Source: Escherichia coli
GTDB lineage: Bacteria; Pseudomonadota; Gammaproteobacteria; Enterobacterales; Enterobacteriaceae
Reading direction: 5' to 3' (one strand)
DNA: 2,046 bases
NCBI RefSeq assembly: GCF_036507355.1
Contig: NZ_AP027885.1
Every line of letters begins with the position of its first letter. Position 1 is the first letter of the stretch. Of the stretch, positions 466 through 2,046 are shown in pieces. The translations under genes were made by a program, and so were the position numbers. The notes under the pieces are model-generated. The model ran no database searches, was not told the DNA's origin, and worked only from the letters and a program-made list of their open reading frames with translations.

Positions 466-900
466 TTAGGTTCTGCCGCCCTGTATAACGCTGAGGCCGT
501 TTTTTAGTGCTTTCTTGTGGTTGCTGACAGTACCTTTCCAGCCAAACTGAGGGTTCAGACGGTAACTGTAACTGCGCCCTACTTTTGGGCCTTGAAGAAT
601 CACGGATAGGTCAATTAGCGCCTTAACCGAACGGCTTACATTGGTTTTCTGCATACCTAAAGCGTCGGCAATATCGGCTTGGGCAATTTGGATGTAATTT
701 TCATAATCGAGATCAGCTAACAGCATCATCAAGACTTTGAATTGCTCCCCTGTGAGGGTCTTAGCAAGGATCTTTAAAGCGTCTTGGTTCATAGTGAAAT
801 GCCTCTCAAAAGCTGACTTCTGTTTGGGTCGGATAACTGCGACAAAACTACCTACCTCTTCCCCTGTAGCAGTGTCTATCTGAGTAATTCGGTTACTCAT
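466..900 (-). CDS. 144-aa predicted winged-helix/HTH DNA-binding protein; candidate small plasmid replication initiator (RepL-like) or autoregulatory repressor
   Basis: ATG is the reverse complement of 898-900 and the TAA stop is the reverse complement of 466-468. An RBS GGGAGAG lies 8 nt upstream (rc of 907-913). The protein has an HTH-like segment (GEQFKVLMMLLADLD...IQIAQADIADALGMQKTNVSRSVKALIDLSVI). The gene has lower GC than its flanks. Palindromic repeats sit in its promoter region. The Rep-versus-regulator call is inference. Confidence 0.75.
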   Translation of the reverse strand: MSNRITQIDTATGEEVGSFVAVIRPKQKSAFERHFTMNQDALKILAKTLTGEQFKVLMMLLADLDYENYIQIAQADIADALGMQKTNVSRSVKALIDLSVILQGPKVGRSYSYRLNPQFGWKGTVSNHKKALKNGLSVIQGGRT

Positions 901-972
901 TTAAGAGGCTCTCCCAAAAAAATAGTTATCAATAATGATAACAACGTTATCAATAATGATAACTATCGTCAA
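901..972 (-). promoter_or_regulatory. Promoter/RBS region of the - strand gene, overlapped by operator-like repeats
   Basis: On the - strand: RBS GGGAGAG (rc of 907-913); -35-like hexamers TTGATA (rc of 927-932 and 948-953) and TTGACG (rc of 967-972); only weak -10 candidates (e.g. GATAAC, rc of 925-930). Exact promoter elements are uncertain. Confidence 0.4.
925..963. repeat. Two tandem 18-bp direct repeats (GTTATCAATAATGATAAC), each internally palindromic, 21-bp register; candidate operator or iteron array
   Basis: Seen in sequence: 925-942 and 946-963 are identical. Each is GTTATCA-ATAA-TGATAAC, and the 3-bp spacer AAC creates a further 7-3-7 inverted repeat between units, giving four alternating heptamers in total. 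Confidence 0.9.
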
Positions 973-1106
973 GCGAGAGCCGCGCCCCACAAGGGCTGAG
1001 AGAAGGCTCTCTTCTGTATCTTATAGCGAGAAGCTCATATGCCCGGATAGCGAACCCTATTTTCATCGGTTCGTGCGTAAGCATTTCTATGCCCGTTCAG
1101 GTGATA

Positions 1107-1196
1107 TTCCGCTTCCTCGTTCAGGCTGTTCGTTCCTCGCTGCGCTGCGGTACGCCTCAGCCTGACCTGCGGCGAGCGGCGCGTGCTCTTTCAAAG
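1107..1196. other. Segment resembling the primosome-assembly / single-strand initiation (pas, n'-site) region found downstream of ori in ColE1/pMB1-type plasmids
   Basis: Hand comparison with the pUC/pBR322 sequence recalled from memory. Colinear exact blocks: ttccgcttcctcg (1107-1119), ctcgctgcgct (1136-1146), ctgcggcgagcgg (1167-1179), and a 9/11 match ctctttcaaag (1186-1196), with insertions between blocks. Needs confirmation by alignment. Confidence 0.35.
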
Positions 1197-1216
1197 ACGA
1201 CTTTGTTGCCTGACAT

Positions 1217-1258
1217 TCGTCAAGGGCGAGCGTAGCGAGTGCCATTTACCCTTGACGA
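1217..1258. repeat. Inverted repeat with 10-bp perfect arms (TCGTCAAGGG / CCCTTGACGA) and a 22-nt loop, in the leader upstream of the relaxase gene
   Basis: Seen in sequence: 1217-1226 tcgtcaaggg and 1249-1258 cccttgacga are exact reverse complements. The right arm contains a TTGACG -35-like hexamer (1252-1257). Confidence 0.6.
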
Positions 1259-1382
1259 TTCACCGGATAAAACAGGCTTGGCAGTGGTGGGGGGTGGCGC
1301 GGAGCGACGCCTTCCACCTGCCAGACTGCCGTTGATTTTGACCTTCTGGCAGCTTGCTGCCCGAACGATTTTGCGTAGCAAA

Positions 1383-1413
1383 GTCTAGTGAGTACACTAT
1401 CATCCTGATAGTG
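1383..1413 (+). promoter_or_regulatory. Candidate oriT core / relaxase operator: nested inverted repeats sharing arms, about 70-95 nt upstream of the relaxase start
   Basis: Seen in sequence: TAGTG (1386-1390) - AGTA - CACTA (1395-1399), overlapping the 8-3-8 palindrome CACTATCA (1395-1402) - TCC - TGATAGTG (1406-1413). Alternative hairpins with shared arms are typical of MobV-type oriTs. A possible weak promoter overlaps: -35 TTGCGT (1371-1376), -10 TACACT (1393-1398). The functional assignment is inference. Confidence 0.35.
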
Positions 1414-1468
1414 GCCCGCCGGAGGCATCGCAATGCGATCCCCCGACTGGCTGGATGTACGCCAGAAC

Positions 1469-1480: not shown

Positions 1481-2046
1481 ATGGCGAATTACGCGATAAT
1501 GCGCTGCAAAAAGCTGACGGGAATGGGCAGTGTGGCCAGCGCTTTGCAGCACTGCTACAGGGAGCGTGAGACGCCGAATGCTGACGCTGAACGGACACCA
1601 GAAAACTACTGCTCTGTGTCTCAGTCGGCAGATGAGGCGATGGGAAAGCTGCGGGAGCTGTTGCCGGAAAAACGCCGTAAAGATGCGGTACTGGCTGTTG
1701 AATACGTTATGACGGCAAGCCCTGAGTGGTGGAACGAGGCCACACCGCGGCAGCAGGCGGAGTTTTTCGCCCGTTCTGAGCAATGGCTGGAGAACAAATA
1801 CGGGAAAGATCGCGTTGTGGCGGCGGTGGTTCACAGGGACGAGGCCACCCCGCACCTGTCTGCGTTCGTGGTGCCATTGACGCAGGATGGGCGGCTGTCC
1901 GCGAAAGAGTTTATTGGCGGGCGGTCAAAGATGCGTGACGATCAGAGCACCTACGCTGAATCGGTAAAAAAACTGGGTCTTGAGCGCGGCATCGAGGGAA
2001 GCCGTGCCACGCATCAGACAGTTCAGCACTACTACGAATCGATAAA
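1481..2046 (+). CDS. mob: MobV-family (Mob/Pre, pMV158 MobM-like) plasmid mobilization relaxase, N-terminal relaxase domain; 3'-truncated by the window edge
   Basis: ATG at 1481 is preceded by the RBS. The frame is open through nt 2046 (188 codons, hand-translated, no stop), which is why it is absent from the ORF track. The translation (MANYAIMRCKKLTGMGSVASALQHCYRER...RKDAVLAVEYVMTASPEWW...AAVVHRDEATPHLSAFVVPL...LERGIEGSRATHQTVQHYY) matches, from memory, the conserved MobV blocks: the N-terminal M-x-Y-x-V-x-R-x-Q-K region, an HNER-like motif, the RKDAVL block and the HxDE..PH metal-binding motif. Confidence 0.9.
   Translation, partial: MANYAIMRCKKLTGMGSVASALQHCYRERETPNADAERTPENYCSVSQSADEAMGKLRELLPEKRRKDAVLAVEYVMTASPEWWNEATPRQQAEFFARSEQWLENKYGKDRVVAAVVHRDEATPHLSAFVVPLTQDGRLSAKEFIGGRSKMRDDQSTYAESVKKLGLERGIEGSRATHQTVQHYYESI

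Follow-up and report, generated by a model that had tools for sequence, protein, structure and literature searches.

Modules and compositional steps in a 2046-bp cryptic plasmid of Escherichia coli

Results

The window, by which we mean the whole stretch of DNA analyzed here (2046 bp, overall GC 0.530, i.e., 53.0%), is a complete circular plasmid with two genes, rep and mobV. Of 5426 complete E. coli genomes, 104 contain matches to it, all of them on plasmids, and Klebsiella and Enterobacter are also among the hosts of these plasmids. Roughly 270 plasmids bear the Rep and roughly 200 the MobV. PLSDB typing assigns no replicon to several of the full-length relatives.

The rep gene occupies 466–900 on the minus strand and encodes a 144-aa winged-helix (wHTH) protein that is RepL-like and belongs to the Col(MG828) group. 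Against the Pfam family RepL (PF05732) it scores 23.1 bits (E = 5.9e-5), a narrow margin over the cutoff of 20.3, with Rep residues 6–132 aligned to profile positions 14–132 of 164; general winged-helix families (MarR_2 and others) score near RepL and stay below their own cutoffs, and NCBIfam gives no family-level call for Rep. HUH and Rep_trans motifs are absent, Pfam yielding matches to MarR_2, HTH and RepL alone. The protein is 79–81% identical to that of L016 and of pKST21 (L017), circular plasmids of 1460–1506 bp typed as Col(MG828), in which the rep homologue is the sole family-conserved gene; the annotation of pKST21 lists no other gene and calls it “replication protein,” and L016 carries an additional hypothetical ORF of 219 aa without a Pfam match. 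From the reading frame, the Pfam match and this homology, Rep is predicted to be the replication initiator of the plasmid. The N-terminal 36 aa of Rep are kept at the protein level in all relatives. A 1445-bp record with a 100% identical Rep (H136) was considered as a minimal replicon and set aside because the record is linear and partial and includes a mobV fragment.

Upstream of rep stand two perfect 18-bp palindromic repeats, GTTATCAATAATGATAAC, at 925–942 and 946–963 (21-bp period, 3-nt spacer), which are predicted operator or iteron sites for Rep binding, and the DNA fold of this region (900–1000) reaches a z of −7.2. The repeat sequence occurs twice in the window and likewise in L016 and L017, where the operators are approximately 90% conserved as against 72–75% identity for the rep gene. 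The operators are identical in L001, appear as a symmetric double variant in L005 and are absent from Rep subtypes below approximately 77% identity, i.e., the operator sequence co-varies with Rep subtype. A promoter-like site for rep (935–962, minus strand), called by its match to the consensus with a −35 TTATCA at 962–957, a −10 TATCAT at 940–935 and an extended TG, sits within both repeats and is the sole minus-strand sigma-70-like match in the window. Rep would then bind the 18-bp palindromes, repress its own promoter and mark the origin. At the other end of the gene, where mobV and rep converge, their stop codons flank a hairpin with 11-nt arms and a 9-nt loop (428–458). It belongs to the junction zone on the left (459–498), in which the identity of relatives switches, and a terminator scan did not call it.

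The second gene, mobV, crosses the circle junction on the plus strand, with residues 1–188 and two bases of codon 189 at 1481–2046 and the 3' part continuing in frame at 1–403 (stop codon 401–403). The first-pass annotation had counted these parts as two genes, a relaxase and a separate 5' CDS, but they form one uninterrupted ORF of 969 nt encoding a 322-aa MobV relaxase. The protein scores 157 bits against Pfam Mob_Pre (cutoff 25.5) and 160.9 against the NCBIfam MobV equivalog (cutoff 100), and relatives hold full-length matches of 95–99% protein identity. The MOBV motifs have been given as HxxR (motif I) and HxDExxPHxH (motif III) (bioRxiv 10.1101/2022.12.05.519187); in the window, motif I at residues 24–27 reads H24-C-Y-R27, and motif III reads HRDEATPHLS (118–127), with the final histidine replaced by serine. 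Directly upstream of the gene lies a candidate oriT core (1364–1423, plus strand), proposed from its hairpin and its conservation, in which 8-bp arms form a perfect inverted repeat, CACTATCA-TCC-TGATAGTG, at 1395–1413. In L013 and L018 the bin that holds it has 95% identity, as against 62–87% for the mobV coding bins, and the mob module starts at 1361–1362 in L004, L008, L009, and L010.

The first-pass annotation had described a sharp compositional mosaic from hand counts on two 120-bp samples, and the counts themselves are exact, with 52/120 (0.433) at 601–720 within rep and 72/120 (0.600) at 1081–1200 in the non-coding region. A circular two-change-point scan places the best low-GC arc at 500–966 (GC 0.418 vs. 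0.564 elsewhere, log-likelihood ratio (LLR) of 15.4), and this ratio is reached by none of 300 shuffles (150 base shuffles with a maximum of 11.9 and 150 shuffles of 30-bp blocks with a maximum of 13.0). The edges proposed at first, 466–970, have an LLR of 13.1, so a significant step is present near 460 and 970. While the contrast is real, “sharp” overstates it, since the edges are soft: the left one is supported within 2 LLR units across 388–696 and the right one across 955–1123, with the right-hand rise occurring in two stages, from the plasmid minimum of 25.8% (0.258) in the rep leader, promoter and operators (901–966) to 0.537 at 967–1074 and 0.639 at 1097–1179.

That the difference is sampling noise of hand-picked windows has next to no chance of being correct. 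Both windows were indeed chosen post hoc, the standard deviation for one 120-bp window is approximately 0.045 and the left edge is as ill-defined as just described, but neither the base nor the block shuffles match the observed two-change-point ratio, independent relatives reproduce the contrast, and the coding GC of rep (0.455, GC3 0.483) and mobV (0.563, GC3 0.638) differs at third positions with a Fisher p of 0.0022. With a sample of 46 E. coli K-12 genes (GC 0.519 ± 0.030, GC3 0.553 ± 0.062) as the gene-to-gene yardstick, the z values for GC and GC3 are −2.1 and −1.1 in rep and +1.5 and +1.4 in mobV. Measured against a homogeneous null, the contrast is thus real; measured against normal gene heterogeneity, it is only moderate.

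The GC-rich non-coding sample has as its core a stretch at 1097–1179 (63.9% GC) that resembles an ssiA, or n'-pas-like, primosome assembly (single-strand initiation) signal, on the minus strand as judged by homology. The call comes from an alignment to L021, a ColE1-type (pMB1-type) replicon confirmed by Rop and by an Rfam RNAI match of 73.7 bits, in which 59 of 83 columns are identical, including three identical blocks of 11–13 nt, with two insertions in the window relative to pMB1. The alignment score of 45 compares with 19.2 ± 2.3 for shuffles (maximum 31), of which 0/500 reach it. The matching L021 segment lies approximately 120–185 nt downstream of the origin, as positioned from RNAI, and ssiA has been placed at that spot downstream of ColE1-type origins (PMC3167613, PMC5935869). 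A stem-loop is predicted in the stretch, but its stability relative to shuffles (z of −1.06 on the minus and +0.38 on the plus strand) shows no excess, which leaves homology, and not structure, as the basis of the ssi call. The block around it matches 471 plasmids, for example near the repA of an IncN plasmid, and 1097–1179 thus appears to be a previously unannotated ssiA-like priming signal common to hundreds of plasmids. It occurs as two alleles whose distribution is independent of the flanks, and it accompanies rep in L001, L011, and L012 and mob in L002, L003, L007, and L019.

The adjoining non-coding block at 1180–1330 (58.9% GC) is conserved and common to RepL and MOBP plasmids. It holds two GC-rich hairpins on the plus strand (1217–1323, fold z of −2.8), one with a 10-bp perfect stem at 1217–1226/1249–1258 and one with a long stem at approximately 1281–1323, possibly another element with a role in the origin or in priming. 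When the whole window was scanned with Rfam at E ≤ 1, a single chance-level match came back, to mir-451 on the operator palindrome (18.7 bits vs. a threshold of 66.5), and neither RNAI/RNAII nor any other known RNA was present. The window is therefore not a ColE1-type replicon.

Comparison with approximately 25 sampled relatives, which the first-pass annotation had proposed as a check, demonstrates that rep and its operators are exchanged together, as one cassette. Between the window and L018, identity is 99.1% over 473–934 and 78.4% elsewhere (mismatches 4/462 vs. 232/1075, p = 5e-34), staying at 94–100% per bin out to approximately 1123, and the MobV of L018 is only 57% identical. Conversely, L006 is 100% identical over 1244–2046 and 1–217 while its rep cassette is 52–77% identical and lacks the operator sequence of the window. 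L002 and L003 keep 1075–2046 and 1–498 and have an unrelated cassette in place of rep, for whose genes Pfam gives no family, and the Col(MG828) mini-plasmids L016 and L017 have only 475–972 in common with the window. In L001, 476–1326 adjoins a MOBP system, and L004, L007, L008, and L019 carry the same mob module with RepL replicons.

Discussion

The plasmid is probably best described as a mobilizable cryptic E. coli plasmid assembled from interchangeable modules, each module type having its characteristic composition. A replication-specificity cassette (approximately 466–1075) would comprise the leftward-read gene for the 144-aa winged-helix initiator (44–49% GC) and the promoter/operator core (26% GC). 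In the structured non-coding DNA beside it (approximately 1075–1330, ~60% GC), the ssiA-like core would fold once single-stranded and load PriA primosomes that prime the lagging strand. The third module, oriT and the MobV relaxase (1362–2046 and 1–403, 56% GC), would let a co-resident conjugative plasmid mobilize the window plasmid. Recombination at junction zones (approximately 278–338, 459–498, 934–1123, 1184–1244, and 1326–1362) is proposed to shuffle these modules among enterobacterial small plasmids, and GC steps would for this reason coincide with module boundaries.

This organization resembles several known systems. The closest are the pKST21/Col(MG828) mini-plasmids L016 and L017, which are alike in Rep and in the pair of 18-bp palindromic operators upstream of rep, and share the GC layout of a low-GC rep and operator with a GC-rich remainder. 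They are smaller (1.46–1.5 kb), have no MobV gene and lack the ssiA-like block and the oriT-mobV of the window; DNA identity is approximately 72% over 475–972, and the plasmids are unrelated outside it. The 1549-bp plasmid pKL1 of E. coli KL4 likewise has a single small winged-helix Rep, a MOB-suite type of Col(MG828), an origin and operator upstream of rep that include a perfect inverted repeat, and the same GC layout (repA 0.430, operator 0.34–0.39, remainder up to 0.64). Its RepA is 30% identical over 54 residues (E = 2e-7), however, its operator sequence is different, it has no mob gene, and no DNA similarity to the window is detectable. Studies of pKL1 RepA by Burian et al. (1999, 2003) are cited in PMC3832669 and PMC6807383, the latter (Branger et al., 2019) containing nothing on pKST21, MOBV, or GC content.

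For pIGRK and pIGMS31, the REP organization of ssi, repeats and a winged-helix rep beside MOB has been demonstrated experimentally (PMC6854812; bioRxiv 10.1101/2022.12.05.519187). By these published descriptions, the pHW126 family (pHW126, pIGRK, and pIGMS31) consists of two-module plasmids of 2–3 kb which share with the window an ssi-like element, repeats, a MarR-like winged-helix Rep without HUH/Rep_trans and an adjoining MOB, the MOB module of pIGMS31 being MOBV as in the window. The Reps of this family are larger (201 aa, or ~30 kDa), four 20-bp iterons with 2-nt spacers and a conserved CR element (~20 bp) stand in contrast to the two 18-bp palindromes of the window, and their GC is 31–37% (PMC2831885) as against 53%. 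The ssiA-like element differs from that of ColE1/pMB1 in its setting, a Rep-protein replicon without RNAI/RNAII. Finally, the mobilization gene resembles MOBV modules of the Mob_Pre/pMV158 MobM type in its profiles, in motif I, in HxDExxPH and in the candidate oriT hairpin directly upstream, but differs in the serine that ends motif III and in its short length.

It remains to consider where the low GC of the cassette comes from. The first-pass annotation had taken the cassette to have been recombined from a lower-GC source into a higher-GC backbone. Exchange as a unit near the proposed edges is borne out by L018, L006, L002/L003, and L016/L017; the import from a lower-GC donor into a GC-rich backbone is not supported in the form proposed, the case for such a donor being weak. 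That reading derives the cassette from some organism or pool of plasmids with lower GC and takes its composition for a historical trace that amelioration has not yet erased. The exchange as a unit fits it, as do a plasmid from Arsenophonus, a low-GC host, whose Rep is 80% identical (rep GC 0.375), the name of the nearest Pfam family, “Firmicute RepL,” together with weak tblastn matches in Bacillus, and a total GC of rep below all 46 sampled K-12 genes; Rozhon et al. suggested likewise for the low-GC pHW126 group (PMC2831885). However, rep homologues in enteric plasmids have a GC of 0.40–0.48 over 72–100% protein identity, so the low GC is not transient, and the GC3 of rep, at the 15th percentile among E. 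coli genes, does not look foreign. Furthermore, rep GC3 tracks host GC (0.315 in Arsenophonus, 0.36–0.55 in enterics, and 0.662 in Aeromonas) while staying below that of the partner MobV, Aeromonas included. Every replicon paired with the mob module, the unrelated RepL ones included, is AT-richer (0.40–0.49 vs. 0.56), and pKL1 is likewise AT-richer in its replicon than in its remainder, which makes the pattern generic and not the product of one event. Nor is there a GC-rich backbone, because the GC-rich non-coding sample is the ssiA-like mobile mini-module. Taken together, we consider a lower-GC donor unlikely.

In polarized substitutions there is a marginal sign of both genes moving toward ~50% GC, rep from below and mobV from above, which would fit different compositional pasts. 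In rep, AT→GC changes outnumber GC→AT changes by 122 to 99, and in mobV GC→AT changes lead by 90 to 69; the contrast between the genes has a p of 0.029 when all sites are counted and of 0.12 for third positions. The implied equilibrium GC is 0.51 for rep (currently 0.46) and 0.49 for mobV. The excess in rep leans toward a lower-GC donor but is non-significant (p = 0.14), and the lean in mobV, also non-significant alone (p = 0.11), bears on the reverse polarity, in which the rep cassette has roughly the composition that is usual for E. coli small plasmids and the mob module (with the ssi block) is a GC-rich incomer from a higher-GC pool, Klebsiella/Enterobacter or beyond. The composition of L013 (65.6% GC overall, mobV 0.702, GC3 0.845) and of the mobV of L018 (0.638, GC3 0.796) agrees with such a pool, the mobV of the window is at approximately the 90th percentile of E. 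coli genes, and the mob module is 95–100% invariant over many AT-richer replicons, as expected of recent spread. A GC of 56% is normal for Klebsiella/Enterobacter hosts, though, so no “foreign” source is required, and neither the operator core, at 26% GC, nor the low GC found in unrelated rep cassettes would be accounted for. This reversed history therefore seems doubtful to us.

Returning to composition as a property of the modules, the low GC of the cassette would be mainly persistent, arising from an AT-rich operator, promoter and unwinding region together with more FYMINK and fewer GARP residues (0.30 and 0.23 in Rep vs. 0.21 and 0.29 in MobV), and would not be the fingerprint of a single recent import. 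The GC3 gap between the two genes exceeds what protein composition or operator function alone explains, an observation that counts against this explanation.

A further and more tentative possibility is that rep and its operators form a swappable “specificity cassette,” with swaps on identical mob/ssi backbones selected for a changed incompatibility or copy-control identity. The offset of REP below MOB in GC, from Arsenophonus to Aeromonas, would then be held by selection (on AT-rich operators, the unwinding region and possibly nucleoid-protein binding) and not by history, and ssiA would be a third independently exchanged unit. L006 may serve as an illustration of such a swap.

The GC step in this plasmid is ordinary plasmid modularity, and its importance beyond annotation is small. 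Within a tiny plasmid, the step marks the functional boundaries of a replication cassette, a priming signal and a transfer module, and GC steps of this kind are therefore not default evidence of a foreign low-GC donor. Cryptic Col(MG828)/MOBV plasmids are very common in Enterobacteriaceae, and the cassette swaps could serve to study how they escape incompatibility.

Plasmid identity and gene content

The 2,046 bases of the window make up one whole small circular plasmid with two genes, mobV and the minus-strand rep (466-900). It is already in public databases: by megablast 204 PLSDB records match it and 60 cover at least 80% of its length, the best matches being mostly circular, 2.0-2.8 kb in size and from Escherichia, Klebsiella, Enterobacter, Salmonella and Citrobacter. 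Of 5426 complete E. coli genomes, 104 contain matches, all on plasmids. The top match, NZ_CP081700.1 (E. coli; 2028 bp), is the only 100%-identical database record, and relative to window 1831-1848 it has an in-frame 18-bp deletion that takes out MobV residues HRDEAT, the beginning of catalytic motif III; judged from the sequence, this would be a natural variant with a dead relaxase or else an error of assembly.

On the plus strand, mobV (1481-2046 and 1-403) is an uninterrupted 969-nt ORF whose 322-aa product is a MobV relaxase, scoring 157 bits against Pfam Mob_Pre and 160.9 bits (cutoff 100) against the NCBIfam MobV equivalog. Since this single ORF runs across the joined window ends, the "relaxase" and "5' CDS" listed separately in the first-pass annotation are one gene.

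A real but gradual compositional step

The first-pass annotation had described a sharp compositional mosaic from hand counts of GC inside rep (52/120 at 601-720) and in non-coding DNA (72/120 at 1081-1200), and both counts are exact. In a circular scan the arc most different in GC is 500-966 (41.8% vs. 56.4%), with a log-likelihood ratio of 15.4 that is reached by none of 150 base shuffles (maximum 11.9) or 150 shuffles of 30-bp blocks (maximum 13.0); the proposed boundaries, 466-970, score 13.1. The heterogeneity is therefore real, but the step is not sharp: the left boundary of the low-GC arc is supported anywhere in 388-696 and the right in 955-1123, where GC rises in two stages (25.8% at 901-966, 53.7% at 967-1074 and 63.9% at 1097-1179). 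The two genes differ as well, with 45.5% GC (GC3 48.3%) for rep and 56.3% (GC3 63.8%) for mobV (Fisher p = 0.0022 for GC3). Set against annotated genes of E. coli K-12 (46 genes; GC 0.519 ± 0.030, GC3 0.553 ± 0.062), the z scores of rep are −2.1 (GC) and −1.1 (GC3), and those of mobV +1.5 and +1.4; the host mean falls between the two genes, and neither departs from it wildly.

Exchange of the cassette among relatives

Some 25 relatives, compared with the window bin by bin (60 bp each), bear out the proposal that rep and its operator repeats are exchanged as a unit. In the K. pneumoniae plasmid L018 (1978 bp), identity is 99.1% over 473-934 and 94-100% per bin to about 1123, vs. 78.4% outside the cassette (57% for MobV; mismatches 4/462 vs. 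232/1075, p = 5e-34). Conversely, the relative L006 is 100% identical over 1244-2046 and 1-217 and only 52-77% in the rep cassette, and plasmids L002 and L003 keep 1075-2046 and 1-498 with an unrelated cassette in place of rep. That replacement (window about 499-1074; L002 882-1364, L003 742-1224) encodes a 160-aa ORF, presumably a replication protein, which has no Pfam match. Four further relatives (L004, L007, L008 and L019) pair the window's mob module with RepL-type replicons, L001 has 476-1326 beside a ColE1-like MOBP system, and the Col(MG828)-typed mini-plasmid L016 and pKST21 (L017) have only 475-972 in common with the window. Junction zones fall near 278-338, 459-498, 934-1123, 1184-1244 and 1326-1362, and the cassette limits first suggested, 466 and about 970, are near the left zone and the inner edge of the right zone. 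The plasmid family is thus a patchwork.

Rep and its operators

The 144-aa winged-helix protein scores 23.1 bits against Pfam RepL (threshold 20.3), alongside several generic wHTH hits, and its gene is found in 267 plasmids by tblastn. On Col(MG828)-typed circular plasmids, 1460-1506 bp in size, it is the sole family-conserved gene, which argues strongly that it encodes the plasmid's replication initiator; the annotation of pKST21 has no other gene and names it "replication protein". RefSeq often places the start at Met37, giving a 108-aa form, but the 36 N-terminal residues ahead of it are conserved at the protein level in every relative, Arsenophonus and Aeromonas included, and the 144-aa form is thus real. 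The Met37 codon (790-792, minus strand) is internal and invariant, with a GAGAGG Shine-Dalgarno-like sequence 9 nt upstream (within 793-810); by analogy with RepR and RepR' of pIGRK (PMC6854812), a second in-frame product from Met37 is possible.

Upstream of rep are two perfect 18-bp palindromes (GTTATCAATAATGATAAC; 925-942 and 946-963) with a 21-bp period, and the only minus-strand sigma-70-like site has its −35 and −10 hexamers within them. In Col(MG828) plasmids these repeats are about 90% conserved vs. 72-75% identity for rep, and the operator sequence is absent where Rep identity falls below about 77%, so operators co-vary with Rep subtype. In plasmid L005, whose Rep is 82% identical to that of the window, the homologue of 925-942 (L005 20-37) has a symmetric double substitution, GTTACCAATAATGGTAAC, that keeps the dyad symmetry; this looks like co-evolution of Rep with its binding site. 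Palindromes and Rep together have the signature of a predicted Rep-operator specificity pair, and with such pairing gene and operators would have to move together.

A perfect 13-nt inverted repeat (CCCTGTAGCAGTG / CACTGCTACAGGG; 862-874 and 1550-1562) pairs the 5' coding part of rep with the mobV motif I codons (HCYR). By a rough estimate about 0.03 such repeats are expected by chance per 2 kb; the pair may be coincidental, or may mark a site of recombination or inversion.

The GC-rich region and the mob module

By distant blastn, 471 plasmids match window 1070-1365, 222 of them typed conjugative, with a broadly shared core at about 1103-1190; in an IncN plasmid, for example, the core is in non-coding DNA downstream of repA. 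A resemblance to the ColE1 primosome assembly site prompted an alignment with pAK51 (L021), a record obtained by search with the pMB1 sequence and verified as ColE1-type by the presence of a Rop gene and a match to Rfam RNAI (73.7 bits vs. 47). Window 1097-1179 and L021 1128-1193 are identical in 59 of 83 columns, including three identical blocks of 11-13 nt, with a score of 45 vs. 19.2 ± 2.3 in 500 dinucleotide shuffles (maximum 31). The L021 segment lies about 120-185 nt past the origin position inferred from RNAI, and ssiA (n'-pas), a PriA-dependent lagging-strand priming signal, sits at that distance past ColE1-type origins (PMC3167613, PMC5935869). The assignment rests on homology because the predicted folding of this stretch is not better than that of shuffles. 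The GC-rich sample at 1081-1200 is in essence the ssiA-like element. Bin 1124-1183, its core, occurs as two "alleles" (87-98% identical in L001, L003, L011, L012 and L019, about 60% in other relatives) distributed independently of flanking-bin identity, which suggests that the element itself is swapped as a mini-cassette. Downstream, two strong GC-rich hairpins (1217-1323, within 1200-1335; fold z = −2.8) lie in a conserved non-coding block common to RepL and MOBP plasmids; possible roles are those of a second priming signal, a nick-site hairpin or a terminator.

The mob module, a standard MOBV system, has its best oriT candidate in the 60-bp segment 1364-1423, with an 8-bp perfect inverted repeat, because this segment keeps 95% identity in relatives that are just 62-87% identical in the mobV coding bins. 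In the RepL-type relatives L004, L007 and L008, similarity to mobV stops at about 338, and the MobV C-terminal tail (338-403) is thus another swapped segment; in these plasmids a VbhA-family antitoxin gene overlaps the mobV end.

Relation to known systems and origin of the step

By Rep identity and common operators, the replication cassette belongs to the Col(MG828)/pKST21 group, already termed "a mosaic group of plasmids" (PMC8148099). The REP modules of pHW126, pIGRK and pIGMS31 are alike in combining ssi, repeats and a MarR-like wHTH Rep next to a MOB module (PMC6854812; bioRxiv 10.1101/2022.12.05.519187), but two features of the pHW126 family, its set of four 20-bp iterons and its very low GC, are missing here, so we do not place the cassette in that family. 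More distantly, the cassette is related to the RepA system of pKL1, which has been studied experimentally (RepA only 30% identical over 54 residues): upstream of rep, pKL1 has an oriV containing Rep-binding sites as well as a perfect inverted repeat, and its RepA assembles into hexamers (PMC3832669, which cites Burian et al.).

Shuffling of REP and MOB modules is textbook plasmid biology, as are AT-rich replication regions, and the GC step is an ordinary feature of a known kind. The first-pass interpretation, that a low-GC cassette was imported into a higher-GC backbone, is partly supported: the exchange is shown, but the lower-GC donor is not, being a weak proposition with five counts against it. 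The plasmid has no backbone of uniformly high GC, the ssiA block being an independent module that accompanies rep on certain plasmids and mob on others. Homologues of rep in enteric plasmids keep a GC of 0.40-0.48 across 72-100% protein identity, and the low GC is therefore stable, not transient. GC3 of rep tracks the host (Arsenophonus 0.315, enterics 0.36-0.55, Aeromonas 0.662), and even in Aeromonas stays below that of the partner MobV (0.786). Every replicon found with this mob module, unrelated RepL replicons included, is AT-richer (0.40-0.49 vs. 0.55-0.56). Finally, pKL1 is without a mob module yet has the same GC layout (43.0% in repA, 34-39% in the operator and as much as 64% in the remainder). 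The offset is partly coding-driven, FYMINK residues being commoner and GARP residues rarer in Rep than in MobV, and the 26% GC operator/promoter core is predicted functional sequence.

The reverse reading, in which the GC-rich mob module is the incomer, fits the MobV relatives in L013 and L018, which are on genes of 64-70% GC. Amelioration was tested directly by polarising substitutions by parsimony on NJ trees, a crude method on a small sample: mobV leans toward GC->AT (90 vs. 69 AT->GC, p = 0.11, implied equilibrium 0.49), and rep has 122 AT->GC vs. 99 GC->AT (p = 0.14, implied equilibrium 0.51). The contrast between them (p = 0.029 at all sites, 0.12 at third positions) hints, marginally, at a convergence of the two modules on about 50% GC, rep from below and mobV from above, which, if true, would partly credit both the imported cassette and the incoming mob module.
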